Part shown: piece after piece, positions 7,490 to 48,990 of the stretch
How positions within the stretch are numbered: position 1 is the first letter of the stretch
How the letters are laid out: the number at the start of each line of letters is the position of its first letter
Assembly: GCA_035631035.1 (NCBI GenBank)
Contig: DASQJL010000096.1
Span: forward strand, 1,234-65,233
Length of the DNA: 64,000 bases
DNA from: Candidatus Binatia bacterium
Lineage (GTDB): Bacteria; Eisenbacteria; RBG-16-71-46; SZUA-252
Direction: 5' to 3'
Translations under genes and position numbers: made by a program
The notes under the pieces: generated by a model
The model's database searches: none
Told to the model about the DNA's origin: nothing
The model's input: only the letters and a program-made list of their open reading frames with translations

Positions 7490-7548
7490 TCCATCCTCCC
7501 GGGCGCCGCAGCGCTCAAGCGTAGCATGGGACGGCGCCGCCGCGGGCA

Positions 7549-8991: not shown

Positions 8992-9066
8992 GCCGAGGAG
9001 TTTACACCAAGCTCGAAGCCCAAGAACGGGCTTAGGGTAGCCCGTCCGGGGGCCGATAGGAGACGC

Positions 9067-34363: not shown

Positions 34364-34476
34364 GGGGCAGGCTCCTAACGCCGCGCCCGGGGCGCGGACG
34401 GGAAGAGACTAGTTCGCGATCGATCGGAGCCGGGGGCTGCTCCCGGGTCGGAATCGGATCGTAACTCGATTGTCGC

Positions 34477-35061
34477 CTATGGGCGGGGCGGCTTGGAAGC
34501 GGGATAGAGGGTGCCCACCTGGCGCTCCCGATGGGCCGCGAACAGCGTTCGTTCGACCGCTCGCGCCGTGACGTCGAGCTCCGCCGCCACGCCCCGAAGC
34601 ACGTGGAGGAACTGGAACCACTGATCGAGGGTGAGCCCGGCGCCCCGGGCATTGCCCCGCACGGCGCCCATCGCGTGCAGCAGCTGCCACACGCGAATGT
34701 CGATCACGCCGTAGCGCCCGGGCTCGAGCATAGTGAGCACCGCGGAGGCCGAGGGGGCGGAGACGCCCCTCAGCGAGAGCAGGCGCTCGAAGCGCTCCCG
34801 CTCCTCCACGCTCCGGATCGCCGCTTCCGTGGCGGTGCGGACGCGGCGCGCGCCGTTTTCGCGGACGAGTCCCGTGGATCGCGGGGATTTCCAGCGGCAG
34901 ATCCGGATCAGCTCCCCCCTCGTGAGGTAGCCGCGGACGTTCGCGGGACGCACCGCTTCGATCAGGGAGGAAGTCGCCGGGTCCTCGACGGCGATCATCC
35001 GCTCCCGCACGAGCGCGATCAGGGAAGGTTCGGGGCGCGAGCCTGCGATCACGCCCCGCAT
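34477..35061 (-). CDS. Hypothetical protein with helix-hairpin-helix (HhH-GPD-like) motif
   Basis: 194 aa. LLSLRGVSAPSASAVLTMLEPGRYGVIDIRVWQLL fits the L..L.G[IV]..-A..[IV]L...-P...-[IV]D pattern of HhH DNA-binding/glycosylase folds. It lies 6 nt downstream of the DUF3037 gene. Confidence 0.5.
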   Translation of the reverse strand: MRGVIAGSRPEPSLIALVRERMIAVEDPATSSLIEAVRPANVRGYLTRGELIRICRWKSPRSTGLVRENGARRVRTATEAAIRSVEERERFERLLSLRGVSAPSASAVLTMLEPGRYGVIDIRVWQLLHAMGAVRGNARGAGLTLDQWFQFLHVLRGVAAELDVTARAVERTLFAAHRERQVGTLYPASKPPRP

Positions 35062-35067
35062 CCGCGG

Positions 35068-35466
35068 TCAGCTTCGCCGCGGCGTCCGGACCATCGTCTC
35101 GAGCAGGTGCTCGAGGAGTGCGGCCGGGTCCGTGCAGGCGCCGGTGTGGACGGCCGAGGTCTGGATGACCGTGCTGCGCGGCGCGGTGAGCCAGCGGAAG
35201 CGCTCCCGCTTCGAGAGGGCCCCGATCGGTCCCGCGGAGGGGCCGCCCGCGCAGATCGCGGGGAGGGTCGCCAAGTGGGCGCGGATCGTCGCAAGGTCGG
35301 CGCCGGGGTCCAGCGCGAGCAGCCGGCCCTCGTCCAGCTCGATGCGGGCCTCCAGGAAGTCGCTCGCCGGGCAGGAGACGATCGCTCCGGCATTGATGAA
35401 CTCCTCCCGCTCCACCTTCGGGACCACGCGGACGATGGCGTAATCGTACGGGCTAGGCTCGGGCAC
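35068..35466 (-). CDS. DUF3037-domain protein
   Basis: 132 aa. The N-terminal YDYAIVRVVPKVEREEFINAGAIVSC matches my recollection of the DUF3037 signature (Y.VLR.VP.VERGEF.N.GV). Its start overlaps the kinase gene by 14 nt. Confidence 0.65.
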   Translation of the reverse strand: MPEPSPYDYAIVRVVPKVEREEFINAGAIVSCPASDFLEARIELDEGRLLALDPGADLATIRAHLATLPAICAGGPSAGPIGALSKRERFRWLTAPRSTVIQTSAVHTGACTDPAALLEHLLETMVRTPRRS

Positions 35467-36217
35467 GGATCGCCTCTTCCAGGAAGGGCCGCGGCGTCTC
35501 CAGGCGGCGCGCCAGATACTTCACGTAGGCATCGCGATGCTCGGCGGCCGTCGCGAAGGGTGCGTCGACCAGCCAGGTGTCGGGGACCAGCGAGACGATG
35601 CGCCGCAGCTCGTCCGGAGTGACCCGCTTGTCCAGCGCGGCATCGGCTTCCTCCATCCGGGAGGCCGCGGGAAGGAGCACGTGGTCGCGAATCATCGGGA
35701 AGGGATCGCGGCTCCGCTCCAGCCAGTGCTCCCACGTGTGGTGGAAGTAGAGCGCCGATCCGTGGTCGATGAGCCACGTGCGCCGGTGCCACACGAGCAG
35801 GTTGGTATTGCGTGGCGTCCGGTCGATGTTCGTGACGAAGGCGTCGAACCAGACCACCAGGGATGCGAACCCCGGATCCGGCTTCTCCGCCACGGGATCG
35901 AACATGATCGAGCCCGGCAGGTAGTCGAGCGCCAGGTTCAGCCCGCCGCTCGCGCGGATCAGGTCCTGGATCTCCGGGTCGGGTTCCGTGCGCGCGAGGT
36001 CGGGGTCCAGCTCCACGAACACGATCTCCGGAACGGGAAGCCCGGCGGCGCGCGCGATCTCGCCGCACACGAGCTCCGCGATCAGCGCCTTGGCGCCATG
36101 TCCCGCGCCGCGGAACTTGAGCACGTACATGCCGTCGTCGTCGGCTTCGACGATCGCGGGCAGCGAGCCTCCCTCGCGGAGCGGGGTCACGTAGCGCGTG
36201 GCCGCGACCGTGCGCAT
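35453..36217 (-). CDS. Short HipA-like (HipA_C-type) Ser/Thr kinase-family protein
   Basis: 254 aa. Gly-rich YVLKFRGAGHGAKAL. Catalytic-loop-like VTNIDRTPRNTNLLV, followed by LIDHGSALYF (D.H..N / DxG analogues of HipA). Confidence 0.6.
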   Translation of the reverse strand: MRTVAATRYVTPLREGGSLPAIVEADDDGMYVLKFRGAGHGAKALIAELVCGEIARAAGLPVPEIVFVELDPDLARTEPDPEIQDLIRASGGLNLALDYLPGSIMFDPVAEKPDPGFASLVVWFDAFVTNIDRTPRNTNLLVWHRRTWLIDHGSALYFHHTWEHWLERSRDPFPMIRDHVLLPAASRMEEADAALDKRVTPDELRRIVSLVPDTWLVDAPFATAAEHRDAYVKYLARRLETPRPFLEEAIRARA

Positions 36218-36234
36218 CTAGAGGGCGCGCCGCG

Positions 36235-36705
36235 TCATCGGCCCAGGAACCTGTCGATCTGCCGGCGGTGCCGCAGCACGTGCACGATCGCGTGCTCGAA
36301 GAGCTGCTCGAAGTCATAGATCGGTCCCCAGCGAACGGTCATCTTCATCTCGGTGCATTCCTGGTCCGTCATCTCCCAGTGGCCCTCGAGGGTCTCGGCC
36401 ATGTAGGCGAGCGTCTTCCGCATCTCGGCCGGCGTATCGGCGCGGCGGACCGGTTCGTCCCACCGGACCACGGGCTCCTTCTTCCAGTGCGTCCGCATGT
36501 AGTTCGCGTAGCCGTACCCGGCTCGGACCACGTGCCTCATGATGGTCTGGATCGAGCGGCAATCCTCGTCCTGGGTCGTGGTGTCGCGGACCCGATCGAA
36601 CTCCTCATCCGAGATCCCCTCCAGAATCCGGATCAGCTCCGCCGAGGCGCGCTCGTACTCGTCCATCAACGCGCCGACGGGTCCCTTCCTGTAGGTCTTG
36701 GCCAC
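36235..36705 (-). CDS. DinB-family protein (second copy)
   Basis: Trimmed to GTG 36705, preceded by GGAGG at 4-nt spacing (alternative ATG 36666). Contains IMRHVVRAGYGY and C-terminal FEHAIVHVLRHRRQI. Confidence 0.7.
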   Translation of the reverse strand: MAKTYRKGPVGALMDEYERASAELIRILEGISDEEFDRVRDTTTQDEDCRSIQTIMRHVVRAGYGYANYMRTHWKKEPVVRWDEPVRRADTPAEMRKTLAYMAETLEGHWEMTDQECTEMKMTVRWGPIYDFEQLFEHAIVHVLRHRRQIDRFLGR

Positions 36706-38184: not shown

Positions 38185-38568
38185 CTACGCGTCGCCCGTG
38201 GGAATGATCCCACGTCGCTCCACCATCAAGATCACGGTGCGCTCCGGGGCGCGCGTCCGGTGCACCACGCCCCTGGGCACCACGAATCCCTGCTGCGGCG
38301 ACAGCTCCACCGTGCGGCTCTCCAGGTCGATCAGCAGCCGGCCCTCCACCACGAAGAAGAACTCGTCCTCCTCGTCATGCTTGTGCCAGTGGTATTCCCC
38401 TCGGATCACGCCGAGTCGCACGACCGAATCGTTCACCTGGCAGAGGGTCTGGTTGTACCAGGGATGGGTGCAGGCGGCGGCGAGCGCGGAAACGTCGATC
38501 AGCTCCAAGGGCTCATAGCGCACGTCCATGTGCGTGTCGTAAGGGTAGTTCTTGGGGTCGTCGGCCAT
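38185..38568 (-). CDS. Cupin-domain protein
   Basis: Trimmed to ATG 38568. Cupin motifs GEYHWHKHDEEDEFFFVVEG and GFVVPRGVVHR. Divergent from lexA. Confidence 0.8.
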   Translation of the reverse strand: MADDPKNYPYDTHMDVRYEPLELIDVSALAAACTHPWYNQTLCQVNDSVVRLGVIRGEYHWHKHDEEDEFFFVVEGRLLIDLESRTVELSPQQGFVVPRGVVHRTRAPERTVILMVERRGIIPTGDA

Positions 38569-38628: not shown

Positions 38629-38658
38629 CTTGACAACTGCACAAACGTTCACTATCTT
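38629..38658 (+). promoter_or_regulatory. lexA promoter with embedded candidate LexA operator (SOS box)
   Basis: cTTGACAacTGCACAAACGTTCAcTATCTT. -35 at 38630-38635, a 17-nt spacer, -10 at 38653-38658, dyad at 38638-38651. 26/30 identical to 41781-41810. Confidence 0.6.
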
Positions 38659-38669
38659 CCTTTTCAGCC

Positions 38670-39428
38670 ATGAAGAAGAAGCCCAACCCCAGCGGGGCCC
38701 GGGGAAAGCGGCCCCCCACGCGCACGCCCTCTCCCGAGGCGATCCTCTCCTACATCGAGGAGTCGCTTCGCGATACGGGCCGCCCGCCCACGATTCGGGA
38801 AATCGGAGCCGTCTTCGGGATCGCCTCCACCAATGGAGTCCGCTACCACCTCGATAAGCTGGAGCGGGAAGGCAGGATCCGGCGGGATCGATTCACCAGT
38901 CGAGGCATCGAAGTACAGTTGGCCGGCGGGCGCGGCGCGACGCATATGGACACCTTGCCCTCCATGTCGCCCGCGTTTCGCCGAGCCAACGTTCCTCGAG
39001 GGACTGTGGCTGGCGTCCCCGGTGGCCTTGAACGGGATCTCCTTGAAGTCCCCCTCCTGGGCCACGTCGCCGCCGGCGCGCCCCTCCTCGCCGAAGAGCA
39101 CATCGAGGACACCCTGACCCTCGACCCGGCGATGGTGCGGCCCGGCGGCAAGCACTTCGCCCTGCGGGTGCGCGGCGACAGCATGAAGAACGCCGGGATC
39201 CTGGACGGCGACGTGGTCATCGTCCGGCACGACACTCCCGTGAAGAGCGGCGAGATCGCCGTCGTGCTGATCGGCGACGAAGCCACCGTGAAGCGCTTCT
39301 TTCCGCGGCGCGACAAGCTCCTGCTATTTCCTGAAAACGAAGACTACGAACCGATCGAAGTGCGTCCGGCCGATCCCGACGTGCGGGTGGCGGGCAAGGT
39401 GGTGGGTGTATTTCGGAGGCTCGGCTGA
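38670..39428 (+). CDS. lexA: LexA repressor (with basic N-terminal extension and expanded linker)
   Basis: Winged-helix TIREIGAVFGIASTNGVRYHLDKLEREGRI. Cleavage site HVAAGAP. Ser in RGDSM and Lys in TVKRF. Confidence 0.92.
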   Translation: MKKKPNPSGARGKRPPTRTPSPEAILSYIEESLRDTGRPPTIREIGAVFGIASTNGVRYHLDKLEREGRIRRDRFTSRGIEVQLAGGRGATHMDTLPSMSPAFRRANVPRGTVAGVPGGLERDLLEVPLLGHVAAGAPLLAEEHIEDTLTLDPAMVRPGGKHFALRVRGDSMKNAGILDGDVVIVRHDTPVKSGEIAVVLIGDEATVKRFFPRRDKLLLFPENEDYEPIEVRPADPDVRVAGKVVGVFRRLG

Positions 39429-39724
39429 TGCTCCATGCGCGATCGTTTCCATCCGAGAGAGACGGCTACTTCATGATCGAGTCCATCCACGACCCCATCG
39501 AGGTCATCACCATGTTCTCCGGCGGAACGATGAAGCCGATCCGCTTCCGCTGGAAGAACAAGACCGTGCGCATCGCCAAGGTGACGGGGGACTGGGTCCG
39601 GCACGAGGGGGAGAACAAGGTCCACTACTTCGCGCTTCTCGCCGACAACGCGGACTACTACGAGATCCGCTACGACGCGCGCGAGATGACCTGGCAGCTC
39701 ACGCGGGTGTGGATGGAGGGGTAG
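39428..39724 (+). CDS. Hypothetical 98-aa protein translationally coupled to lexA
   Basis: The ATG overlaps the lexA TGA (TGATG). GGAGG lies 8 nt upstream. Ordinary composition (KPIRFRWKNKTVRIAKVTGDWVRHEGENKVHYFALLADNADYYEIRYD). I recognised no family. Confidence 0.6.
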   Translation: MLHARSFPSERDGYFMIESIHDPIEVITMFSGGTMKPIRFRWKNKTVRIAKVTGDWVRHEGENKVHYFALLADNADYYEIRYDAREMTWQLTRVWMEG

Positions 39725-40193
39725 CCCCGCTCCACGTCCACGAGCCGAGCAGGCGCTCACGCCGGCGCCCGGGCCAGCGGCGGAACTCCTCGGACGGAAC
39801 GAACCCGAGCAGGCTGTCGCAGTCCTGGCGCCGGATGAAGCGGACCCACCCCGACAGCGGTTCCCGAACGAGAACGACACGGCCGGCGAAGATCTCCTCC
39901 AGCGCTCCGATGACGGCGCCGAGGATGGCTCCATCGGACGCCGCGCCCCAGACCAGGATCTTCTCGGCGGGACCGGGAGGGACGCCGTCGTCGTAGGCGA
40001 TCGTCGCCCCCTCCTCGTAGAGGTCGGCGCGAAGCTCATGTCCGGGGCGGCCCGGCACCGGCAGACGGACCGACATGTGGACCGTCATGGAATCCACGCT
40101 CGGGTCCAGCTCCGGATGAAGGGCCCGTAGACGCGCGGCCAGGAGCGTCGCGACCCGGCGGGTCTGCTCGGTCAGGGTGAGCGCGTGCTTCAA
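39699..40193 (-). CDS. Hypothetical protein
   Basis: Trimmed to TTG 40193, which overlaps the HAD stop (TTGA). 164 aa, no motif recognised. The start is uncertain. Confidence 0.45.
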   Translation of the reverse strand: MKHALTLTEQTRRVATLLAARLRALHPELDPSVDSMTVHMSVRLPVPGRPGHELRADLYEEGATIAYDDGVPPGPAEKILVWGAASDGAILGAVIGALEEIFAGRVVLVREPLSGWVRFIRRQDCDSLLGFVPSEEFRRWPGRRRERLLGSWTWSGATPPSTPA

Positions 40194-40939
40194 GGGATCG
40201 CGCCCTCGTCGACATGCCCCGGGGCATGTCGCAGCTCGGACAGGCTGCGCACGATGCGATCGGGGCGTACGTCGCTGCCCGATGGGATCCCCGCGCCTCC
40301 TCGGTCGATCCAGATGGCGTAGATCCCGAGGCGCTGCGGGGCGGCGACGTCCCATTCGAGATTGTCCCCGGCCATCCAGGTCTCGTGCGGCGCGGCCTGC
40401 AGCTCGTCCAGCGCGATCCGGTACACGCGCGGATCGGGCTTGCCGTAACCCAGCTCCCCCTCGATCAGAACCAAATCGAAGAGCTCGGCCAGCTGAAAGC
40501 GCACCACCTTGCTCCTCTGGGCAGCCGCGGCGCCGTTCGTGAGGAGGGCCAGCCTGCGGCCGCTCTGCTTGAACCAGCGCACGGTCTCGATCGCATCCTC
40601 CAGCGGCTGGAGGCCCAGGTGCCGCTGGGCGCGATAGTGCTCCGCGATCTTCTCGGCCAGCTCCGGCGACTCGAGCCCGATCTCCACGAGCGAAGCGCGT
40701 ACGACCTCCCGCCGCGCGGCATCCAGGTCCAGGCGCCCCTCCCGATGGCGCTCGGGATCGGACCAGAACCACGCGCGCGTTTTCTCGATGACGGCGTGGA
40801 GCGCGGAGGGATCGACCGCGCCCAGCTCGTCGCGGTGGGCGCGGCAGGCCTCCAACCAGCAGTGGGAGACGTTGCCGCTGTCGTCGAGGATCGTGTCGTC
40901 GAGATCGAGGAGGACGGCCTTGGGAAGGGCTCCGGTCAC
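40190..40939 (-). CDS. HAD-superfamily hydrolase
   Basis: Motif I VLLDLDDTILDD. Motif II LLTNG. Motif IV-like MAGDNLEWD. Confidence 0.85.
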   Translation of the reverse strand: MTGALPKAVLLDLDDTILDDSGNVSHCWLEACRAHRDELGAVDPSALHAVIEKTRAWFWSDPERHREGRLDLDAARREVVRASLVEIGLESPELAEKIAEHYRAQRHLGLQPLEDAIETVRWFKQSGRRLALLTNGAAAAQRSKVVRFQLAELFDLVLIEGELGYGKPDPRVYRIALDELQAAPHETWMAGDNLEWDVAAPQRLGIYAIWIDRGGAGIPSGSDVRPDRIVRSLSELRHAPGHVDEGAIP

Positions 40940-40949
40940 GGGCGCCGTC

Positions 40950-41750
40950 TCAAGCCCTGCTCCCGCGCACGGCCCACGCGCGCGCGATCAGGTGGATCGA
41001 GCCGTCCGCCTCGACCGGCAGCCGCGAGCGGATTCGGTCCCGCAGCGCGCCCCGGCGCGCCTCTTCCAGCGACATGGCGTAGCCCGGCGCGGGGCCCTGG
41101 CCGCCGAGGAAGGGGGACCAGTAGTCGTCGAAATCGCGAAACACGGTCGGGACGTCGATCGCACGCGTCCGGACGTCGCTCAGGTGCCCTCCGGAAAATA
41201 CATCGGCGAGCGCCTCGGGGTGGCAGAGCGGGAATCGGGTCCCTTCGTCCAGCTCGCGGGCCGCGGGATCGAGGGCGATGGCGGCGTCCCAGAAATGCCG
41301 GAGCAGCTCCATGCGCCCCGAGTAGTCCCAGACATAGGCCGCGGCGACGCCTCCGGGGCGGAGCGCGCGAGACATCTCGCCCACGGCGAGTGCCGGCTCC
41401 GGAACGAAGTTGAGGAGCAGGGCGGAAACCGCTGCGTCCACCGAGGCGTCCTCGACCGGAAGCGATCGGGCGTCGCCCACCTCGAACGTCGCGACCGTGC
41501 GCTCCCCGATGCGCGCACGGGCGTAGTCGACGTACGCGGGGGAGGCGTCGATGCTCCGCACCGACCGGGGGCTGGAGCGATCGAGAAGGGTCTGGGTCAA
41601 GGCACCGGTGCCGCACCCGACGTCGAGCCAGGCCCTGCCCGGCGGCACGTCGAGCCACGCGAGGAATTCGGGGGCCACGCGACGGCTCCATCGGCCGACG
41701 AAGGGCTCGTAGAGGTCGCCCGCGGCCCAGACGTCTTCGGGGGTCATCAC
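40950..41750 (-). CDS. Class I SAM-dependent methyltransferase
   Basis: Motif I WLDVGCGTGALTQ. 266 aa. Divergent from dinB. Confidence 0.85.
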   Translation of the reverse strand: MMTPEDVWAAGDLYEPFVGRWSRRVAPEFLAWLDVPPGRAWLDVGCGTGALTQTLLDRSSPRSVRSIDASPAYVDYARARIGERTVATFEVGDARSLPVEDASVDAAVSALLLNFVPEPALAVGEMSRALRPGGVAAAYVWDYSGRMELLRHFWDAAIALDPAARELDEGTRFPLCHPEALADVFSGGHLSDVRTRAIDVPTVFRDFDDYWSPFLGGQGPAPGYAMSLEEARRGALRDRIRSRLPVEADGSIHLIARAWAVRGSRA

Positions 41751-41780
41751 GACAGTTTACTTGCCCCTTGCGGGCGCCAT

Positions 41781-41810
41781 CTTGACAACTGCACAAATGT
41801 GCAATATCGT
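41781..41810 (+). promoter_or_regulatory. dinB-operon promoter with embedded candidate LexA operator (perfect palindrome)
   Basis: cTTGACAacTGCACAAATGTGCAaTATCGT. -35 at 41782-41787, a 17-nt spacer, -10 at 41805-41810. The palindrome TGCACA-AA-TGTGCA lies at 41790-41803. Confidence 0.6.
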
Positions 41811-41882
41811 AGTCGTGTGACCTGCTTGAGGCGCCTCGCCAGTCCTCGATCGTGGAACGCAGAGCCCTGGGAGTGACCTTCC

Positions 41883-43154
41883 GTGCGGATCGTGGCGCAC
41901 ATCGACATGGATGCCTTTTTCGCCTCGGTCGAGGAGAAGCTGAACCCGCGGCTCGCGGGAAAGCCGCTGGTCGTGGGAGGGTCCAGGGACAGCCGCGGGG
42001 TCGTCTCGGCGGCCAACTACGCGGCGCGTCCGTACGGGATCCACGCCGGCATGCCGATTGCCGAGGCGGTGCGCCTCTGTCCTGAAGCGGCCTTCATCGA
42101 AGGCGACCCCAGGAAGTACGTTCACATCTCTCTCCAGATCCTCGACACGCTGAAAGACTTCACCCCCATCGTCGAGCCGTTCAGCATCGACGAGGCGTTC
42201 CTCGACCTGACCGCGGTGGAGCGTCTTCGTCCTCGAACGGAAGACGGCGACCACGAGACCTGCCTGAACGCGGCGATCCCGCTCGCCCAGGCGATCCAGC
42301 GCGCGGTGCATCGGCGCGTGGGGCTGACGGCCTCGATCGGGATCGCCCCCAACAAGTACGTCGCCAAGATGGGGAGCGGCCTCCGGAAGCCGAACGGGCT
42401 CACGGTGCTCTCGATCCGCCGCTTTCGCGAGATCTTCGAATCGAAGCCGGTCAACGAGCTGTGGGGGATCGGAGAGAAGACGGCGGCTTCGCTCGCCACA
42501 CTCGGCATCCGCACGGCGGGGCAGCTCGCCCGCTTTCCCCGGGAGTTCCTGACCTATCATTTCGGGCTGAGCGGCGATCACATGCAGGATGCCGCGCGGG
42601 GCGACGACGAATCCGAGGTGGTGCCCTACTTCGAAGGGGTGCCGGTCAAGTCGATGGGGCACGAGTACACGCTGCCGGAGGACGTGTCGGATCGCGAGCG
42701 CATCCGCGCGCACCTCCTCCGCCTGAGCGATCAGGTGGGCCGACGCCTTCGCGTCGACGGATACCTGGGCCGTGTGATCGCGGTGAAGTTCCGCAATGCG
42801 CGCTTCAAGACCACCATCCGCCAGCGCGCGCTGGCCGAGGTGACCGACGACGAGAACGTCATCTATGGCACCGCGTGCATCCTCCTCGACGAGAACTGGG
42901 ACGGAAAGCCGCTGCGCCTGGTCGGCGTCTCGGTGTCGGACCTCGTCTCGGCGCAGGGATTCCATCAGCACGATCTCTTCTCCACCGACGAGCGCCGGCG
43001 AAGAATGACCGAGGCTGCGGATTCGCTGCGGAACAAGTTCGGGGACGCGGTCCTGGTGCGGGCGGGAGCGCTGGATCATGGCGACACGCAGCGCCTCTCT
43101 CGTGAGGGAGCCAGTCGGAGTCTCGTCCGGGTCCTCGCCGACGAGCGACGATGA
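41883..43154 (+). CDS. dinB: DNA polymerase IV (Y-family)
   Basis: GTG start. IAHIDMDAFFASVEE, SIDEAFLDLT, IGIAPNKYVAKM, LWGIGEKT. Confidence 0.92.
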   Translation: MRIVAHIDMDAFFASVEEKLNPRLAGKPLVVGGSRDSRGVVSAANYAARPYGIHAGMPIAEAVRLCPEAAFIEGDPRKYVHISLQILDTLKDFTPIVEPFSIDEAFLDLTAVERLRPRTEDGDHETCLNAAIPLAQAIQRAVHRRVGLTASIGIAPNKYVAKMGSGLRKPNGLTVLSIRRFREIFESKPVNELWGIGEKTAASLATLGIRTAGQLARFPREFLTYHFGLSGDHMQDAARGDDESEVVPYFEGVPVKSMGHEYTLPEDVSDRERIRAHLLRLSDQVGRRLRVDGYLGRVIAVKFRNARFKTTIRQRALAEVTDDENVIYGTACILLDENWDGKPLRLVGVSVSDLVSAQGFHQHDLFSTDERRRRMTEAADSLRNKFGDAVLVRAGALDHGDTQRLSREGASRSLVRVLADERR

Positions 43155-44143
43155 GCGACCGACCCAAGATCGTGCTCGGCACCTCGGGATGGTCCTTCAA
43201 GGACTGGGTGGGGCCCTTCTATCCGCCCGGCACGAATCGGGCGCACATGCTGGACTACTACGCGGGCGAGTTCCAGGCGGTCGAGGTGAACTCCACCTAT
43301 TACCGGATTCCGCACTGGCGCACGTTCGAGGCGATCGCGAAGAAGACGCCTCCCGGGTTCGAGATCGTCGTGAAGACGCACCACGACATGACGCACCTGC
43401 GCTCCCGCGAGCCCGATCTCTACCGGGACTTCGAGCGCTCCATCCAGCCGCTGCTCGAGGCGGGGAAGCTCACGGGGATCCTCGCGCAATTCCCCTACGC
43501 GTTCCGGCGCACGCGTGAAAACGAGGAGTTTCTTCACGCCCTGCCCGACCTCCTCGGCCGATGGGTACCGCTCTTCGTGGAGTTCCGCCACCGGTCCTGG
43601 GTGGACGACGCCGTCTTTCAGGATCTCCAGAAGGAGGGCCTTGGCTACGTCAGCGTGGACGAGCCGGACCTTCCGGGCCTGGTCCCGCCGATCGCGCGCC
43701 GCACGGGGCCGATCGGGTACGTCCGCTTTCATGGCCGGAACAAGGAGAAGTGGTGGGGGGCCGAGTCGCGCGATCGAGGGGCGCCCGACGGGCCGGGAGT
43801 GAAGCGGGATGCCGCGAAGAGCGCAACGCCCGATGACAGGGGCAAGGCCCGCACGCGAGTCCGCGCCGGTGCGGACTTGGGCCCGCTCTTCAGCGGCACT
43901 CCCGACCATCCCGCCGAGGCGCCACCCTTGCCGGCTCCGCCCGCCTCCGAGCCGCGCACGTCCAGCACGCGCTACGACTGGTCCTACACCGAAGAGGAGC
44001 TGCGCGAGTGGATGGACAAGATCCGTGAGATGACGCAGCAGGCCAAGAAGACGTTCGTCTTCTTCAACAACTGCCACGTGGGGCAGGCGGCGACCAGCGC
44101 CAAGCTGATGCGGAAGCTGCTCGAGGGGGAGGGGATGCTGTGA
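43151..44143 (+). CDS. DUF72 (YecE-like) protein with a ~70-aa low-complexity insertion
   Basis: The ATG overlaps the dinB stop (ATGA). GTSGWSFKDWVGPFYP, VEVNSTYYRIP, EFRHRSW, RYDWSYTEEEL. The insert GAESRDRG...EPRTSST lies between the last two blocks. Confidence 0.8.
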   Translation: MSDRPKIVLGTSGWSFKDWVGPFYPPGTNRAHMLDYYAGEFQAVEVNSTYYRIPHWRTFEAIAKKTPPGFEIVVKTHHDMTHLRSREPDLYRDFERSIQPLLEAGKLTGILAQFPYAFRRTRENEEFLHALPDLLGRWVPLFVEFRHRSWVDDAVFQDLQKEGLGYVSVDEPDLPGLVPPIARRTGPIGYVRFHGRNKEKWWGAESRDRGAPDGPGVKRDAAKSATPDDRGKARTRVRAGADLGPLFSGTPDHPAEAPPLPAPPASEPRTSSTRYDWSYTEEELREWMDKIREMTQQAKKTFVFFNNCHVGQAATSAKLMRKLLEGEGML

Positions 44144-44168
44144 GCCGGGGCGCGAGCGGAGCGGGGAC

Positions 44169-46676
44169 ATGACGGGCGGGGGTGTCGCGGGGGGAAGCGA
44201 TTTCGTCCACGGGCCGGGACTCTTCGACGCCGAGCGCGGCGAGCGCGGGCCGCGTTCCGGCGCTCCCGAGACCCTGGACGAGTACGAGGCGCTCCTGCAG
44301 GCGCTCACCTCGCGGGACCGTCGATTTGTCCACGGTCCCTACGGGCTCCGCCGCCGTCCGAACGAGCTGGTGCACCTGGAGCGCCTCCCGGCCCGGCCCG
44401 CCGTGTACGGCGACCTCGCCGAGCCTCTGCCGCAAGCGCTCCAGGGCGTGCTACGCGAGGCGGGCATCGAACGCCTCTACACCCACCAGGCCCAGGCGGT
44501 GGATCTCGCGCGCTCCGGCGCGAACGTCGCCGTCGCAACGGGCACCGCGTCGGGGAAGTCGCTCGCCTATCACCTGCCGATCCTCGAGCGGCTCCTCCTC
44601 CAGCCGGGCGCCACCGCGCTCTACCTGTTTCCGACCAAGGCCCTCGCCCAGGACCAGCTGCGCGGCCTCCTGCGCTTCGCCGCGGCGTCTCCAGCGCTCG
44701 GGCGCGCGCTCGCGACCGGCACCTACGACGGAGACACTCCCGGCGAGTCGCGCCGCAAGCTCCGCGAGCGCGCCAACGCGATCCTCACGAACCCCGACAT
44801 GCTCCACCAGGGGATCCTCCCGTACCACTCCCGATGGAGCCGGATCTTCTCCAACCTGCGCTACGTCGTGGTGGACGAGATGCATACCTATCGCGGCGTG
44901 TTCGGGTCCCACGTCGCCAACGTGCTCCGACGGCTGAAGCGGATCGCGCGCCACTACGGCGCCGATCCCCGCTTTCTTCTGAGCTCCGCCACCATTCGAA
45001 ATCCGCGCGAGCTGGCGGAGTCGCTGGTCGGGGAGCCGGTCCGTGTCGTGGACGAGGATGGCGCGCCCCGCGGACCCAAGCTCTTCGCGTTCTGGAATCC
45101 CAGACATGCCGGTCCCGAGCAGGCGGGCGCGCGAACCTCCACGTCGATCGAAGCCGAGCGCATCCTGGTCTCGCTCATCCGGCGGCAGGTCGCCTCGATC
45201 GCGTTCACGCGGTCGCGCGTCTCCGCCGAGCTGATCTACCGCTACGCGCGCGAGCAGCTGGAGGAGCGGGGGCGCCGCCGCGCCGAGAAGGCCGAGGGCG
45301 GGGCGGTCCCGCTCGCCGACCGGCTGAGTCCCTACCGCGGCGGCTACCTTCCCGAGGAACGGCGCGCCATCGAGCGCCGCCTCTTCGACGGGGACCTCCT
45401 CGGCGTCATCTCGACGAACGCGCTCGAGCTGGGGATCGATGTCGGGTCGCTGGACGCGGCCGTGCTCGTCGGCTTCCCCAACACCATCGCGAGCACCTGG
45501 CAGCAGGCGGGGCGCGCGGGCCGCTCGCAGGCGCCGTCGCTCGCGATCGTCGTCGCCTACGACGATCCGATCGATCAGTACCTGATGCGCCACCCCGAGT
45601 ACTTCTTCGCGCAATCGCCGGAGAGCGCCGTCGTGGATCCTTCCAACCCCTACGTGCTCGCGTCGCACCTCGCCTGCGCCGCGCACGAGCTGCCGCTCTC
45701 GCGCGCCGACGAGGTCTGGTTCGGGCCGAGGGCCGAGGCGCTCGGGCGCCTGCTGGAAGAGGAAGGCACCGTCAAGTCGCTCGACGGCCTCCGTTACTGG
45801 TCTTCGTCCGAATATCCGGCGGGGCGGGTCAACCTGCGCACCATCTCCGACGACACCTACACCATCCTCGAGCGGAAGCCCGGCGCTCCGGAAGCGGAGG
45901 CGAGGACCCTGGCCACGGTGGACGCGATCAGCGCGCCGGAGCTGATCTACCCCGAGGCGATCTATCTGCACGAGGGAGACACCTGGTTCGTGCGCGAGCT
46001 GGACCTGCAGCAGAAGGTCGCCTACGTCGAGCGGCAGGAGGTGGACTACTACACGCAGCCGGTGCTGGACACGCGGCTGCGGCTGACCGAGACCCGCGAA
46101 ACGAAGCGCTGCGGCGAGTGCGAGGTGGGCCTGGGGACAGCGAACGTCTCCTGGGCCACCGTCGCCTTCAAGAAGATCCGCTTTCGGAGTCTCGATGCCA
46201 TCGGCTATCACCCGCTCGATCTCCCCCGCCTGAACCTGGACACGGTGGCGCTCTGGATCCGCCCCGACGAGTCGGCGCGCGCGGCGGTGCGCGTGAAGGG
46301 GATGAATCCCGCCGAGGGGATGTCGGGACTCCGCAATCTGCTCGTCACGCTGCTTCCGCTTCACGCCATGTGCGACCGGCCGGACCTGGGAGGCGTCCTC
46401 GACAGCGCGAACCTCGGCGAGCAGGCGATCTTCCTCTACGACCGCTACCCGGGCGGGCTGGGCTACGCGGAGCGCGGCTACGCCATCGTGGACGACCTCC
46501 TGCGCGCGACGCTCCGCATGATCGAGGACTGCCCCTGCGAGATCGGGTGTCCCTCGTGCGTCGGCCTCCCGGTCCTCCGCCCCGCGCAGCAGCAGGACTA
46601 CGACCTGCACGGCGGCTGGCCCATCCCGAACAAGGCCGCCACGGAGGCGCTGCTCCGGCGCCTTCTCGGGGCCTGA
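44169..46676 (+). CDS. DExH-box helicase with C-terminal DUF1998-type Cys cluster (MrfA/YprA-like)
   Basis: Motif I ATGTASGKS. Motif II VVDEMHTYRG. Motif VI QQAGRAGR. C-terminal CPCEIGCPSCVG. Confidence 0.85.
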   Translation: MTGGGVAGGSDFVHGPGLFDAERGERGPRSGAPETLDEYEALLQALTSRDRRFVHGPYGLRRRPNELVHLERLPARPAVYGDLAEPLPQALQGVLREAGIERLYTHQAQAVDLARSGANVAVATGTASGKSLAYHLPILERLLLQPGATALYLFPTKALAQDQLRGLLRFAAASPALGRALATGTYDGDTPGESRRKLRERANAILTNPDMLHQGILPYHSRWSRIFSNLRYVVVDEMHTYRGVFGSHVANVLRRLKRIARHYGADPRFLLSSATIRNPRELAESLVGEPVRVVDEDGAPRGPKLFAFWNPRHAGPEQAGARTSTSIEAERILVSLIRRQVASIAFTRSRVSAELIYRYAREQLEERGRRRAEKAEGGAVPLADRLSPYRGGYLPEERRAIERRLFDGDLLGVISTNALELGIDVGSLDAAVLVGFPNTIASTWQQAGRAGRSQAPSLAIVVAYDDPIDQYLMRHPEYFFAQSPESAVVDPSNPYVLASHLACAAHELPLSRADEVWFGPRAEALGRLLEEEGTVKSLDGLRYWSSSEYPAGRVNLRTISDDTYTILERKPGAPEAEARTLATVDAISAPELIYPEAIYLHEGDTWFVRELDLQQKVAYVERQEVDYYTQPVLDTRLRLTETRETKRCGECEVGLGTANVSWATVAFKKIRFRSLDAIGYHPLDLPRLNLDTVALWIRPDESARAAVRVKGMNPAEGMSGLRNLLVTLLPLHAMCDRPDLGGVLDSANLGEQAIFLYDRYPGGLGYAERGYAIVDDLLRATLRMIEDCPCEIGCPSCVGLPVLRPAQQQDYDLHGGWPIPNKAATEALLRRLLGA

Positions 46677-46709
46677 CGCGCGCCGCGCCGCGCGCCGGAG
46701 ACAGGCCCG

Positions 46710-47714
46710 ATGCTCTCCAAGACACTCCGGGACAGGATCGGGGGGCTGCTCCGGCAAGGCGCTCTGGACATTCCGGTCCCGCACGGGAACGGAGATTCGA
46801 ATGGCCATGCGGCCGCGCCCCCGCTGTTCACCCCCGAGCCGCGTCGCCACTTCGTCGCGACGGGGATCGAGGAGATCCTTCCCGGCGGCGTGATCGAGAC
46901 CGCGCAGGGGACCGTCTTCGCGCATGAGCGGCTCTACACCGATCTGGGAGAGCGTCCCGTACCCCTCCTCCGCCGGCTGGCCGAGCTCTGCGCCTACCCC
47001 GGGTGCGCGCCGGAGCGCCATGGAACGGGTCCACACTGGGTCGAGATCCCCGGCGTCGACTGCCCCTATCCCGCGCTCCCGGAACGCGCGCGCGCGCGCC
47101 GGCGCCGGCCGCGGGATCTGGCGGAGGCGACGGGCCTTCACGACCCTCCGGAGCAGGGGATGTTTCGCCGGTTCGGATACCGGCGCGTGCTCTACTTGGA
47201 CATCGAAACGTGCGGGCTCTCGGCGGCGCCGGTGTTCCTGGTCGGGCTCTGCATGGTGGGGGAGCGGAATCTCATCCTGCGCCAGCTCTTCGCGCGGGAC
47301 TACGCCGAGGAGCGGGCGCTCCTGGTGGAGCTCAAGCGCCTGGCCGGGGAGCACGACTTCCTCGTGACCTTCAACGGCAAGGCGTTCGACGTGCCCTTTC
47401 TTCGCGACCGCGCCGTGCATCACCGCCTCGATCCGCCGATCGCGATGCCCCACCTGGACCTGCTCTGGATGGCGCGCCGGCGCTGGAAGGATCTCCTTCC
47501 GGACTGCAAGCTGAAGACGATCGAATGGCGGGTGCTCCGGCGGAGGCGCGCGGGCGACGTGGGAGGATCGGAGATCCCCGGGCTCTACCACGACTACGTG
47601 AAGCGGGGCGAGGCCCACCGGCTGCTTCCGGTGTTCCATCACAACCTGCTCGACGTGGTCGCGATGGTGGAGCTGACGCCGGTCATCTTCGACCCGGATG
47701 TCGGGATCTACTAG
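46710..47714 (+). CDS. RNase H-fold DEDD-type exonuclease (MrfB/YprB-like)
   Basis: Exo I YLDIETCGL. Exo II TFNGKAFDVPFL. Exo III HHNLLDVVAM. Confidence 0.75.
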   Translation: MLSKTLRDRIGGLLRQGALDIPVPHGNGDSNGHAAAPPLFTPEPRRHFVATGIEEILPGGVIETAQGTVFAHERLYTDLGERPVPLLRRLAELCAYPGCAPERHGTGPHWVEIPGVDCPYPALPERARARRRRPRDLAEATGLHDPPEQGMFRRFGYRRVLYLDIETCGLSAAPVFLVGLCMVGERNLILRQLFARDYAEERALLVELKRLAGEHDFLVTFNGKAFDVPFLRDRAVHHRLDPPIAMPHLDLLWMARRRWKDLLPDCKLKTIEWRVLRRRRAGDVGGSEIPGLYHDYVKRGEAHRLLPVFHHNLLDVVAMVELTPVIFDPDVGIY

Positions 47715-47769
47715 AGAGCGGCGACGCGAGCGAGTGATCGAGGAGCGGGAGAGGAGCGGGACGGGGTCC

Positions 47770-48342
47770 CTAGGAGGAGCTTCGCGCGCCCCACATCTCG
47801 CGCGTGAGCTCGAAGCGGAGCGAGCCGGGATCGGACGGGGCCTCGTTCGCCCGCACGAAGCCGTTCTTCTCGAGGACCCGCTGGGAAGGGCGCCCCTCCG
47901 GCAGCGTCTCGGCGACGACGCGGCGTACGCGCGGGTCGCTAAAGGCCCACGCCAGCGTGGCCCCCACCGCCTCCGTGGCCAGCCCTCTCCCGTAGTACTC
48001 CTCCACGATGGAGTACCCGATCTCGATCGTCCCGCGGGGGTCGGGCGGTCCCTTGAAGCCGCCCCCTCCGATCAGGAGCGGCCGCCGCTCCGGCGCGCCC
48101 GCCTGGGGCCGCACCAGCCAGGACCAGCCCAGGAACCCGACCGCCTCGGGGTGCTCCTCCAGCCGGCGGCAGAGGAAGTCGCGCCCCTCCTGGTCGTTCT
48201 CCCCGGGGGGCCAGGCCCCGTGGATCTCGGCCCCCAGCAGACGGGCCAGCTCGGCGCGGTCGGCCGCCTCCGCCCGGGCGATGGCCGGGGTGGAGGCGAT
48301 CAGGAAGAGGCGCTCGGTTTGGAGTTGGATCGACTCGGTCAC
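47770..48342 (-). CDS. GNAT N-acetyltransferase (RimJ/RimL-like)
   Basis: 190 aa. YYGRGLATEAVGATLAWAF and SQRVLEKNGFV. Confidence 0.8.
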   Translation of the reverse strand: MTESIQLQTERLFLIASTPAIARAEAADRAELARLLGAEIHGAWPPGENDQEGRDFLCRRLEEHPEAVGFLGWSWLVRPQAGAPERRPLLIGGGGFKGPPDPRGTIEIGYSIVEEYYGRGLATEAVGATLAWAFSDPRVRRVVAETLPEGRPSQRVLEKNGFVRANEAPSDPGSLRFELTREMWGARSSS

Positions 48343-48453
48343 GACATTATCCTTTCATGCGTACCGAATCTCGGCAACCCAGGAACCACGGCAGGTCCTC
48401 GTTCCATCGAAGTACGATCGCGTCACCCCACAACCCGGAAGGAGTCTTCCCCC

Positions 48454-48990
48454 ATGAAACGCCATCTGCTTGCATTGGGAGTCCTCGCTCTCGCCATGTC
48501 GGCGGCCCCCGCGCTGGCCGACGACGCCGCCACCCCGGCCCAGCCGGACAACGCAGCCCAGATGGCCCAGCCGGCCGCGGCCCAGCACGTGGTCTACGCC
48601 GCCAAGGACCTCAAGTGGATGGATGGCCCCCCGGGTCTCCCCGCGGGCGCCAAGTTCACGGTTCTCGCCGGAAACCCGATGGCGCCGGGGATCTACACGA
48701 TTCGCGCGATGTTCCCCGCCGGCTACAAGATCCCGGCGCACTTCCACGCCGCCGATGAGAACGTCACCGTGATCGCCGGCGAGTTTGGGATCGGCATGGG
48801 CGACGCCCTGGACATGGCGAAGGGCGATGTCATGAGCTCGGGCGGCTTCACGTCGCTTCCGGCCGGCATGCACCACTTCGCCTGGACCAAGAAGGGCGCC
48901 ACGGTCCAGATCCACGGCATGGGGCCGTTCTCGATCACCTACCTGAATCCTTCCGAGGATCCGCGGAACGCCAAGGAAGCCGCCAAGTAA
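48454..48990 (+). CDS. Secreted cupin-like protein
   Basis: Trimmed to ATG 48454 (RBS GGAAGGAG upstream). Signal peptide ALGVLALAMSAAPALA. Contains PAHFHAADENVTVIAGEF and MHHFAW. Confidence 0.7.
   Translation: MKRHLLALGVLALAMSAAPALADDAATPAQPDNAAQMAQPAAAQHVVYAAKDLKWMDGPPGLPAGAKFTVLAGNPMAPGIYTIRAMFPAGYKIPAHFHAADENVTVIAGEFGIGMGDALDMAKGDVMSSGGFTSLPAGMHHFAWTKKGATVQIHGMGPFSITYLNPSEDPRNAKEAAK

Follow-up and report, generated by a model that had tools for sequence, protein, structure and literature searches.

The window analysed here, a 64 kb stretch of DNA from an uncultured soil bacterium of the Candidatus Eisenbacteria, contains a dinB gene followed in the same direction by genes for a DUF72 protein, a helicase of the MrfA type and an exonuclease of the MrfB type, with one sigma-70-like promoter upstream of the four (Table 1). 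Direct reading of the sequence shows dinB and the DUF72 gene overlapping in an ATGA (43151-43154). The two gaps that follow measure 25 nt and 33 nt, each with a GGAG, and 55 nt separate the stop of the exonuclease gene from that of a convergent GNAT acetyltransferase gene. The arrangement had been described in an earlier note, made without database searches, and its co-directional genes, overlap, gaps and convergent neighbour held in every detail. So did its single promoter/operator: between 41000 and 48600, both strands considered, the dinB promoter is the sole sigma-70-like site (0.3 expected), with the sequence TGCACAAATGTGCA in its spacer. Promoters or terminators between the genes, which the note had named as a concern, were not found by sequence prediction, transcript data being absent; of the two terminator-like matches, one falls within dinB on the minus strand and the other within mrfB, a number at chance level (2.5 expected).

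Table 1. Features of the locus, in window coordinates.
Feature	Position	Strand	Description
lexA promoter and putative LexA operator	38630-38658	+	sequence, pattern match; architecture equals dinB promoter
lexA	38670-39428	+	252 aa; NCBIfam TIGR00498, 182.7 bits (cutoff 110.95); Pfam LexA_DNA_bind and Peptidase_S24
DUF6504 gene	39428-39724	+	98 aa; 1-nt overlap with lexA stop (TGATG)
Opposite-strand block	39699-41750	-	unknown ORF, HAD hydrolase (40190-40939), SAM methyltransferase (40950-41750); not part of the system
dinB promoter and putative LexA operator	41782-41810	+	TTGACA, 17 nt, TATCGT
dinB	41883-43154	+	423 aa; Pfam IMS, IMS_HHH, IMS_C
DUF72 gene	43151-44143	+	330 aa; PF01904, E 2.7e-58, match in two stretches
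DUF72 insert	43760-43969	+	aa 204-273, 70 aa, between KEKWWG and RYDWSY
mrfA/yprA-type SF2 DExH helicase gene	44169-46676	+	835 aa; Pfam DEAD, Helicase_C, WHD_HRQ1, MZB
mrfB-type DEDDh 3'-5' exonuclease gene	46710-47714	+	334 aa; Pfam RNase_H_2
GNAT acetyltransferase gene	47770-48342	-	convergent; marks the operon's 3' boundary

The dinB promoter is composed of a -35 element TTGACA (41782-41787), the perfect palindrome TGCACAAATGTGCA (41790-41803) and a -10 element TATCGT (41805-41810). The lexA gene lies 3 kb upstream of the cassette, and its own promoter (TTGACAAC-TGCACAAACGTTCA-CTATCTT) is near-identical, with TTGACA at 38630-38635, the box TGCACAAACGTTCA at 38638-38651 and TATCTT at 38653-38658; in both promoters the box is placed between TTGACA and TATCNT at 17-nt spacing. 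The exact palindrome occurs once in the window, the only comparable site being that of the lexA promoter. A search allowing one mismatch returned 15 sites against 14.9 expected, which is chance level, and only the lexA and dinB sites among them are credible operators. In the GTDB loci of 80 related genomes (1.096 Mb), perfect TGCAC-N4-GTGCA was found 53 times, in every case directly upstream of lexA, DUF6504 or dinB and in the context CTTGACAAC-box-GTATCNT; about one was expected by chance, and shuffles gave 0-4. Where inserted genes separate dinB from lexA-DUF6504, counting only related loci with the upstream region of dinB on the contig, dinB has kept its own box (L003-L006, L009, L012, L018, L021, L029 and L047), perfect except for one mismatch in L005.

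Because the window's lexA promoter carries an almost identical box and 53/53 perfect boxes stand in that promoter context, the palindrome is understood as very probably the LexA operator, on comparative evidence and with binding inferred in the absence of binding data. The LexA control claimed in the earlier note is strongly supported on these same grounds. TGCAC-N4-GTGCA fills the spacer between -35 and -10, and LexA bound there would block RNA polymerase; DNA damage, through RecA-stimulated self-cleavage of LexA, would then be inferred to derepress the lexA-DUF6504 and dinB units together. Alternatively, the palindrome could be bound by a regulator other than LexA, or have arisen by chance within a strong promoter. 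In favour of this, LexA binding lacks experimental support. The Eisenbacteria box matches the Fibrobacter-type LexA box, reportedly TGCNC-N4-GTGCA (Mazón et al. 2004). Against the alternative, lexA's own promoter contains the box in every examined genome whose cluster begins with lexA, the box is conserved perfectly while its flanks drift, and such sites make up all 53 perfect occurrences in 1.1 Mb. Autoregulation of LexA is, moreover, the rule in characterised SOS systems. We consider the alternative very unlikely.

The LexA protein has the Ala-Gly cleavage site (AAG, 134-136), the serine motif GDSM (169-172) and the lysine motif VKR (207-209). Many Eisenbacteria possess a contiguous lexA–DUF6504–dinB–DUF72–mrfA–mrfB, and the opposite-strand block of the window is missing from the contiguous loci L007, L011, L017, L020, L023, L024 and L026. 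Comparative evidence thus shows the two units of the window to be halves of an ancestral six-gene operon, split by the opposite-strand genes, with dinB having its own operator copy. The four-gene cassette proposed earlier is corrected in this respect: it is the distal part of the ancestral unit, and lexA and DUF6504 had been missed. Co-transcription of the cassette is supported by its junctions and by a tight spacing that is conserved across genomes. Among relatives whose genes adjoin directly, the spacing runs from -17 to 69 nt between dinB and DUF72 and from -12 to 59 nt between DUF72 and mrfA, the latter with a single outlier of 674 nt (L022). That dinB-DUF72-mrfA-mrfB constitute a single LexA-repressed (SOS) operon is very likely, LexA binding and damage induction being inferred without expression data.

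DinB exceeds the NCBIfam cutoff for Pol IV (NF002677, 307.9 bits; cutoff 256) and exhibits IMS and IMS_C domains with the palm motifs DMDAFFASVE (8-17) and SIDEAFLD (101-108); it is a Y-family Pol IV with a little-finger domain and intact catalytic carboxylates. Its QHDLF (aa 362-366), of clamp-binding type, is followed by the RecA-NT-like MTEAADSLRNKFGDAVLVRAG (aa 375-395), and an alignment shows the positions of the RecA-NT-like and xLF motifs to be conserved among operon-linked PolYs. Both motifs are assigned by resemblance to published ones, with no binding data. The operon shares with LexA-regulated mutagenesis cassettes (lexA–imuA–imuB–dnaE2, umuDC, dinB–yafNOP) a LexA operator in the promoter and the joining, in one operon, of a Y-family polymerase to small accessory genes, and in the classical cassettes lexA is often first, as its S24 peptidase counterpart is in imuA–imuB–dnaE2 of a Rhodanobacter plasmid. 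The window operon differs from them in lacking ImuA or UmuD, in having a DinB that is catalytically intact by sequence, and in adding DUF72 and a helicase/exonuclease excision pair, which we did not find described there in the literature searched.

Published modules of PolY with stand-alone ImuB-C (+RecA, ±DnaE2) place a small beta-rich protein beside a PolY that carries a clamp-binding and then a RecA-NT-type motif (PMC12926913), and the window shows a comparable arrangement, the two motifs of its DinB being assigned by resemblance, where DUF6504 is small, all-beta and without a PDB relative. Its gene context matches these modules, and two loci with DUF6504, an active PolY and DnaE2 (L120, L131) match the published DnaE2B–PolY–ImuB-C composition. 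However, hhalign of the DUF6504 alignment A3 against two ImuB proteins was non-significant (probability <1%, best segment at the extreme ImuB C-terminus), Pfam did not place PF20114 on these two proteins, and the main text of PMC12926913 contains neither DUF72 nor MrfAB. An exhaustive HMM search gave 708 DUF6504 representatives; word-index searches returned Eisenbacteria-like proteins only. DUF6504 as a stand-alone ImuB-C-like polymerase accessory subunit remains a possibility, a lead only.

The helicase matches B. subtilis YprA (6znp) over query residues 67-802 (E 4.3e-187). With its SF2 DExH core (DEMH, aa 236-239), winged-helix domain and C-terminal four-cysteine MZB (DUF1998; CPCEIGCPSC, aa 788-797), it is a full-length MrfA/YprA homologue, for which a function in mitomycin-C repair is inferred. 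The exonuclease aligns with the MrfB core (8un9, E 6e-18). Its N-terminal helix is conserved and its linker variable; the C-terminal part is a DnaQ-like DEDDh core with Exo I LDIETCG (163-169), Exo II NGKAFDVPF (222-230) and Exo III HHNLLDV (310-316). B. subtilis MrfB has a C-terminal TPR domain (PMC11194089). Pfam found none in the window protein, which runs on for only 11 residues after the exonuclease core (the alignment reaches residue 322-323 of 334), and we have therefore filed it as an MrfB-like core rather than a full architectural orthologue. The helicase and Exo I-III motifs named in the earlier note were thus confirmed, whereas its MrfA/MrfB identities held over full length for the helicase and for the core only of the exonuclease. 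As in B. subtilis, the exonuclease gene lies next to the helicase gene and follows it, and the conserved N-terminal helix fits the model of MrfA docking that has been published, although the N-terminal region is longer. A PPLF in this region, resembling a GPLF of the DUF72 protein, was rejected as a shared motif for lack of conservation in close orthologues. Unlike B. subtilis MrfAB as described, the window's pair belongs to a LexA operon with dinB and DUF72; two MrfAB papers (PMC11194089, bioRxiv 10.1101/426304) do not mention LexA, and "SOS" appears once, unrelated, in only one of them.

The pair could also be read as a YprA-family anti-phage or mobile-element system, comparable to DISARM, Druantia or ARMADA, and some relatives do have an HNH endonuclease gene inserted beside mrfA. 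This is very improbable, given that the helicase aligns with B. subtilis MrfA end to end and is paired with an MrfB-type exonuclease, a combination that published work puts on the DNA-repair branch. The pair also shares LexA control with dinB, and Pfam revealed no defence partner at the locus, be it a methylase, a PLD nuclease or another.

The DUF72 protein scores above the Pfam gathering threshold and adopts the TIM-barrel fold of 1vpq/1vpy. It shares 44% identity and the fold with Thermotoga TM1631; against the YecE model it scores 26 bits (cutoff 412), hence is no YecE orthologue, and E. coli YecE belongs to a separate subfamily. Residues S15, N47, Y50, Y51, K75, H82, Q113 and R146 are invariant (alignment A1) and align with TM1631 Ser10, Asn44, Tyr47, Tyr48, Lys72, His79, Gln114 and Arg145, which were modelled as DNA contacts in a study predicting TM1631 to be an endonuclease (PMC3828134). 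The window protein is accordingly predicted, by model, to be a TIM barrel of the xylose-isomerase/Endo IV superfamily with the putative DNA-phosphate-holding residues of TM1631. The absence of an active-site metal from DUF72 crystal structures (PMC3828134) speaks against a DNA enzyme. What sets the window protein apart within PF01904, besides its SOS operon, is the insert, found at 70 aa as the earlier note had estimated, which is low-complexity (rich in A, P, G, R and D), not present in TM1631 and disordered in the AlphaFold model. It contains a conserved motif [DE][LYF]GPLF (GPLF: aa 244-247, 43880-43891), restricted to the clade with tight dinB-DUF72-mrfA linkage.

A gene-neighbourhood check of the kind suggested earlier shows that the synteny recurs: dinB immediately precedes DUF72 in 54 of the 68 loci that could be assessed, mrfA follows DUF72 in 22 of 61, and the gene order of the window is found in at least 22 species-level genomes. 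More widely, at least six diverged DUF72 clusters are linked to Y-family polymerases or lexA, in differing gene orders and with at least three operator types. In well-flanked metagenome loci a PolY gene lies within 4.2 kb of DUF72 in 17/34, repair neighbours being missing at about half, and DUF72 also occurs in other polymerase operons of damage-inducible type (e.g., lexA–DUF72–inactive PolY–DnaE2). Enrichment of DUF72 near polB2/LexA operons has been reported (PMC11791011). Since most DUF72–PolY operons lack MrfAB, DUF72 cannot be MrfAB-specific. The dedicated module of the earlier note, which linked DUF72 to a TLS polymerase and MrfAB alike, is hence corrected: the constant partner of DUF72 in these operons is the Y-family polymerase, with MrfAB an add-on in one clade. 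The DNA-repair context proposed for DUF72 is supported and extends to other polymerase operons, its pathway function remaining an inference. That many DUF72 genes have no repair neighbours stands against a repair role.

Two further readings deserve consideration. The first denies DUF72 a nuclease activity and makes it a mutasome component comparable to UmuD, ImuA or ImuB-C, with a structural or regulatory part in the translesion polymerase complex; MrfAB would be an SOS passenger without relation to it, confined to one clade. In its support, the constant neighbour of DUF72 is not MrfAB but a Y-family polymerase, accompanied by DnaE2 or not; the lexA–DUF72–iPolY–DnaE2 arrangement puts DUF72 at imuA's place in classical cassettes (cf. 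Rhodanobacter); and the conserved GPLF in a disordered insert resembles a protein-docking motif. Against it, residues conserved throughout the family gather at the barrel's C-terminal face, the active-site location of TIM barrels, which is enzyme-like; a recent systematic AlphaFold survey of PolY/DnaE2 complexes has no DUF72 among the subunits (PMC12926913); and many DUF72 genes are unlinked to a polymerase. We regard this reading as unlikely. The second, a "grab-bag" operon whose genes share LexA control but function independently, is supported by the compositional fluidity of SOS regulons (PMC4951493), by the splitting, extension and HNH invasion of the operon in various lineages, and by the presence of mrfAB in only a subset of loci. 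It too appears unlikely in view of the translational coupling of dinB and DUF72 through the ATGA overlap, and of the adjacency of DUF72 to PolY in independent lineages with differing gene orders, which co-regulation alone leaves unexplained.

The explanation we prefer on balance, an SOS operon serving a lesion-processing pathway whose function is inferred, assigns DinB to lesion bypass or gap filling, probably aided by DUF6504 as an ImuB-C-like subunit. A role for DUF72 on damaged DNA, in partnership with translesion polymerases, is favoured by a modest margin, its biochemical function being inferred; the protein would be a lesion-processing enzyme, most likely an endonuclease or phosphodiesterase, that creates or cleans a 3'-OH strand end beside the lesion for the polymerase to extend. 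In the mrfAB clade, MrfA and MrfB, a helicase and an exonuclease that both work 3'-5', would use the end made by DUF72 and strip the damaged strand. The published MrfAB model has no incision step, and MrfB strongly prefers free DNA ends, with linear preferred over nicked DNA and only very slight activity on nicked plasmid (bioRxiv 10.1101/426304), so that a simple nick may not suffice as entry point. DUF72 is a candidate for the missing step, the source of the DNA end for MrfB; that it is specifically an incision nuclease feeding MrfAB is no more than an inferred possibility. Mitomycin-type adducts are attached to guanine at N2, and lesions of the N2-dG kind are those for which DinB-type polymerases are specialised; as a module against bulky adducts of the minor groove, the cassette therefore makes chemical sense. 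The proposed logic resembles that of Endonuclease IV and UVDE, in which a lesion-proximal nick starts UvrABC-independent excision, whereas DUF72 shares only ~7-12% identity with these enzymes, lacks their metal cluster in crystals and has no known biochemical activity.

A bolder and tentative reading sees TM1631-like DUF72 as a widespread SOS-inducible lesion-processing enzyme, the missing incision or end-cleaning partner of DinB, of iPolY–DnaE2 and, in Eisenbacteria, also of MrfAB, with DUF6504 as a stand-alone subunit of ImuB-C type. If true, it would imply that bulky adducts are removed without UvrABC, by a pathway of the form "nick, unwind, resect, fill". DUF72 is a large family, including E. 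coli YecE and Thermotoga TM1631, with solved structures and unknown function, and the repeated occurrence of its TM1631-like members inside LexA-controlled polymerase operons of independent lineages is the strongest functional lead obtained here. In addition, the study defines a probable LexA operator for the candidate phylum Eisenbacteria, TGCAC-N4-GTGCA, and extends the catalogued range of SOS mutagenesis and repair cassettes by a new gene composition. A description of the dinB-DUF72-mrfAB cassette was not found in the literature searched, as the earlier note had supposed; the repair role of DUF72 is partly precedented by two earlier hints (PMC3828134, PMC11791011).

Plasmid contexts of DUF72 are mixed and anecdotal. 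No repair-related neighbours were seen in Agrobacterium and Oceanithermus, and an "RNase H-like" neighbour in Deinococcus, considered as a possible MrfB, was rejected as not MrfB-like. DUF72 lies near SRAP in Deinococcus, and near a ligase fragment and imuA in Paraburkholderia.

Sequence and comparative evidence together show the dinB–DUF72–mrfA–mrfB cassette to be one LexA-type operon, the downstream half of a conserved unit headed by lexA, with LexA binding and induction as yet untested. An open reading frame listing, combined with Pfam and NCBIfam scans of the window, gives four co-directional genes (see the table), of which mrfA encodes the helicase and mrfB the exonuclease. The junctions claimed in the earlier note, namely an ATGA overlap of dinB with DUF72, gaps of 25 and 33 nt at the other two boundaries and a convergent GNAT gene, all held when read from the sequence, and the sequence motifs named there were all found in the proteins. 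Each of the two gaps contains GGAG, and the stop codons of mrfB and the GNAT gene are 55 nt apart. A consensus scan of 41000-48600 returned one sigma-70-like promoter on both strands together (0.3 expected) and no intergenic terminator-like site; the two terminator-like sites it did report, one within dinB on the minus strand and the other within mrfB, are at chance level (2 versus 2.5 expected).

Features of the cassette and of the lexA region, in window coordinates
Feature	Position	Strand	Description
Cupin gene	38185-38568	minus	diverges from lexA promoter
lexA with own operator, then DUF6504 gene	38630-39724		DUF6504 98 aa; 1-nt overlap TGATG
One-mismatch box	38638-38651		TGCACAAACGTTCA
SAM methyltransferase gene	40950-41750	minus	diverges from dinB promoter
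Promoter	41782-41810		TTGACA, 17 nt, TATCGT
Perfect palindromic box	41790-41803		TGCACAAATGTGCA
dinB	41883-43154	plus	IMS, IMS_HHH, IMS_C domains (Pfam); NCBIfam Pol IV NF002677, 307.9 bits (cutoff 256)
dinB/DUF72 overlap	43151-43154		ATGA
DUF72	43151-44143	plus	PF01904, E 2.7e-58, match in two stretches
GPLF peptide of DUF72 insert	43880-43891		aa 244-247
Modelled DNA contacts of TM1631 in window DUF72			Ser10, Asn44, Tyr47, Tyr48, Lys72, His79, Gln114, Arg145 = S15, N47, Y50, Y51, K75, H82, Q113, R146
Helicase (mrfA-type)	44169-46676	plus	Pfam DEAD, Helicase_C, WHD_HRQ1, MrfA zinc-binding domain MZB
Exonuclease (mrfB-type)	46710-47714	plus	Pfam RNase_H_2
GNAT gene	47770-48342	minus	convergent; closes cassette

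The perfect palindrome lies within the spacer of the dinB promoter, and a one-mismatch version sits in a near-identical promoter (TTGACAAC-box-CTATCTT) 12 nt upstream of lexA; one-mismatch matches as such occur in the window at chance level (15 found, 14.9 expected). The lexA gene is identified by NCBIfam TIGR00498 (182.7 bits, cutoff 110.95), and its product has the Ala-Gly cleavage site together with the Ser and Lys motifs. One promoter/operator design common to the repressor gene and the polymerase operon is a signature of SOS autoregulation. The box also matches TGCNC-N4-GTGCA, the LexA box type reported for Fibrobacter (Mazón et al. 2004). Scanning a DUF72 alignment against one genome per GTDB species yielded 80 loci (1.096 Mb), nearly all from Eisenbacteria MAGs, which contain 53 perfect TGCAC-N4-GTGCA sites compared with 0-4 in shuffled sequence. 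All 53 have the context CTTGACAAC-box-GTATCNT, so that the box fills the -35/-10 spacer, and all 53 are directly upstream of the unit's lead gene, be it lexA, DUF6504 or dinB. Where dinB is split from lexA–DUF6504 and its upstream region is on the contig, it has kept a box of its own, perfect except in one close relative of the window (L005, one mismatch). The comparative evidence is thus strong that this box serves as the LexA operator of Eisenbacteria, and it indicates that selection maintains LexA control of dinB–DUF72(–mrfAB), with neither binding nor induction tested. Against this distribution, the alternative that the box is bound by a regulator other than LexA is all but excluded.

Homologues of the window's DUF72 protein bear the name Candidatus Eisenbacteria, and the identical sequence is found on two metagenome contigs with matching gene order. 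Gene orders in the 80 loci, established by tblastn with the window's proteins, fall into three arrangements. Many genomes (e.g., L007, L011, L017, L020, L023, L024, L026) have contiguous, co-directional lexA–DUF6504–dinB–DUF72–mrfA–mrfB, and L027, L028 and L031 share this order but have a further gene, for an HNH endonuclease, separating mrfA from DUF72. Opposite-strand genes come between DUF6504 and dinB in the relatives nearest to the window (L003-L006) and in several further lineages (L009, L012, L018, L021, L029, L047); they include genes for a HAD hydrolase and a methyltransferase and, elsewhere, for GNATs and a Tag glycosylase. More distant Eisenbacteria have DUF6504–dinB–DUF72 without mrfAB. 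Given enough upstream sequence, dinB directly precedes DUF72 in 54 of 68 loci, and mrfA follows within 2.5 kb in 22 of 61. Directly adjacent pairs are separated by -17 to 69 nt (dinB–DUF72) and by -12 to 59 nt (DUF72–mrfA), with a single outlier of 674 nt (L022).

Two side observations concern these loci. The gene between DUF72 and mrfA, of ∼1.4 kb and seen in one Eisenbacteria subclade (L027 11083-12210; also L028-L031, L047, L049), has only a weak HNH endonuclease signature in L027 and looks like a mobile insertion within the operon. Eisenbacteria-type cassettes of high identity also occur in MAGs that GTDB labels differently (L003, L005, L006, L010, L015, L054, L080, under Omnitrophota, Bacteroidota, Limnocylindrales, Hyphomicrobiales, Acidobacteriota, Binatia and Udaeobacter), probably from binning contamination rather than horizontal transfer.

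Residues 67 to 802 of the helicase align with B. subtilis YprA/MrfA (PDB 6znp, E 4.3e-187), the four-cysteine cluster included. The exonuclease matches the catalytic core of MrfB (8un9, E 6e-18) and has the DEDDh residues; unlike B. subtilis MrfB (PMC11194089) it lacks a C-terminal TPR domain, since the protein stops right after the core. Its N-terminal helix (MLSKTLRDRIGGLLR) is kept among orthologues, which fits the published AlphaFold-Multimer model wherein the N-terminus of MrfB docks on MrfA. That the cassette might be a defence system is all but excluded: in a recently published survey of YprA-family proteins, MrfB-paired helicases belong to the DNA-repair branch and fall outside those concerned with defence. 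DinB keeps its catalytic carboxylates, and in it QHDLF (362-366) precedes a RecA-NT-like segment (375-395), a layout described for Y-family polymerases (PolY) associating with RecA and ImuB-C (PMC11791113, PMC12926913).

The window DUF72 protein is 44% identical to Thermotoga TM1631 (PDB 1vpq, E 7e-54), which Konc et al. 2013 (PMC3828134) predicted to be a damage endonuclease from a modelled DNA complex. Eight of the modelled DNA-contact residues named in that study are invariant across the Eisenbacteria clade. An insert of 70 aa sits precisely at the junction of TM1631 residues 219 and 220. The model that AlphaFold built from 32 aligned sequences has a mean pLDDT of 76.7, with a confident barrel and disorder at residues 208-271. 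Homologues differ in the length and sequence of the insert, which carries a conserved [DE][LYF]GPLF peptide only in the clade whose dinB, DUF72 and mrfA are tightly linked. This peptide may act in docking, to the clamp or to MrfA, and a likeness to clamp-binding xLF motifs is offered as a suggestion only. One homologue (P0119) has SLDLF at the same position.

Beyond Eisenbacteria, metagenome contigs were scanned with a deliberately broad DUF72 alignment having TM1631 as its first sequence, giving 80 loci at 33-47% identity to TM1631 and 29-73% GC. Among the 34 flanked by at least 1.5 kb on each side, a same-strand Y-family polymerase gene occurs within 4.2 kb in 17 and lexA lies upstream in 10; about half show no polymerase link. 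New architectures include a tight four-gene operon, lexA–DUF72–PolY–DnaE2 (e.g., L152 at 5176-10984, Pfam-confirmed), whose PolY in L152 has lost the catalytic Asp and Glu residues. DUF72 there holds the position of imuA in classical mutagenesis cassettes. A non-catalytic mutasome subunit could be imagined from such a position; we regard this reading of DUF72 as unlikely. Other architectures are DUF6504–active PolY–DnaE2–DUF72 (L120, L123, L131), lexA–dinB–DUF72 without DUF6504 (L089, box TGCACATTTGTTCA) and a UmuD-like protein–PolY…DUF72 (L166). The repeats upstream of lexA differ among these operons (TTTACAT direct repeats, or CACAC-ATTT-GTGTG), pointing to different LexA lineages. When 130 sequences were clustered, the polymerase-linked genes fell into at least six clusters separated at ∼55% identity, with unlinked clusters between them; this DUF72 subfamily therefore associates with SOS polymerases repeatedly and not by a single inherited accident. 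The view of the cassette as a 'grab-bag' SOS operon of functionally unrelated genes appears unlikely alongside such recurrence. E. coli YecE belongs to a different DUF72 subfamily.

Several observations on these contigs stand apart. Operons of lexA–DUF72–(catalytically dead PolY)–DnaE2 were also noted in L135, L142-L145, L148-L156 and L159 (lineages unidentified, 45-70% GC), and spans of the DUF6504-like–active PolY–DnaE2–DUF72 type in L120 (884-6756), L131 (1328-6753) and L123 (62-68% GC); the published DnaE2B–PolY–ImuB-C module has so far been reported only from Actinobacteria. TTTACAT direct-repeat arrays with ∼10-11 bp spacing overlap TTGACA-like hexamers upstream of lexA in L135, L144, L148, L151, L153 and L156 and are probably a different type of LexA operator. 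In L152 a palindrome, CACACATTTGTGTG, takes their place, lying between TTGACA and a -10-like element. Plasmid contexts of DUF72 are mixed: it lies near an SOS-response-associated peptidase (SRAP) gene in Deinococcus taeanensis (L084), and in Paraburkholderia sprentiae (L086) it neighbours a DNA ligase fragment as well as imuA, an anecdotal fit to the repair theme.

In the mechanism we propose, DNA damage would trigger LexA cleavage and joint induction of DinB (with DUF6504), DUF72, MrfA and MrfB. Mitomycin forms N2-guanine adducts in the minor groove, the class of lesion that DinB also prefers. No incision step is included in the published MrfAB model, and MrfB favours free ends over nicked substrates (bioRxiv 10.1101/426304), hence our proposal that DUF72 supplies the strand end. 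It would make or clean that end where the lesion lies; MrfA and MrfB would next unwind the damaged strand and resect it, leaving a gap for DinB to fill or bypass. Since DUF72 is found beside polymerases even without MrfAB, its core role must relate to the polymerase step, and we infer MrfAB to be a clade-specific extension of a DUF72–polymerase unit. The cassette offers a candidate for the step that the MrfAB pathway lacks, and a handle on the uncharacterised DUF72 family. Its kind, an SOS translesion/repair cassette, is known; its composition is new. The full-text literature searched contains no paper linking DUF72 with MrfA/MrfB, ImuB or DnaE2, none treating Eisenbacteria and LexA together, and no mention of DUF6504. 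Repair hints for DUF72 are partly precedented, by the TM1631 endonuclease prediction (PMC3828134) and by a published comment on the enrichment of DUF72 and SRAP genes around polB2 operons that have LexA (PMC11791011).

DUF6504, translationally coupled to lexA through the TGATG overlap, scores above the Pfam gathering threshold for PF20114 and is a confident all-beta protein without a PDB relative. In Eisenbacteria and other lineages its gene lies ahead of Y-family polymerase genes. Its place upstream of RecA-NT-bearing PolYs, sometimes with DnaE2, agrees with that of the 'stand-alone ImuB-C' subunit, reported as a beta-barrel that also has no relative in the PDB (PMC12926913). Compared directly by profile with two ImuB proteins, DUF6504 gave no significant match, so the identity with ImuB-C remains a possible lead, not a result.

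The intergenic regions at the divergent cupin and methyltransferase genes are only ∼100-130 nt long and hold the LexA boxes, and so these genes might possibly respond to LexA too. In L009, an Eisenbacteria-scan locus, a methyltransferase gene is likewise divergent from dinB and adjoins a Tag 3-methyladenine glycosylase gene. Upstream of lexA (window ∼33850-36700; L001 701-3555) are a HipA_2–DUF3037 pair and two DinB/YfiT-like (PF05163/PF12867) metalloenzyme genes, the latter not polymerases in spite of the family name.
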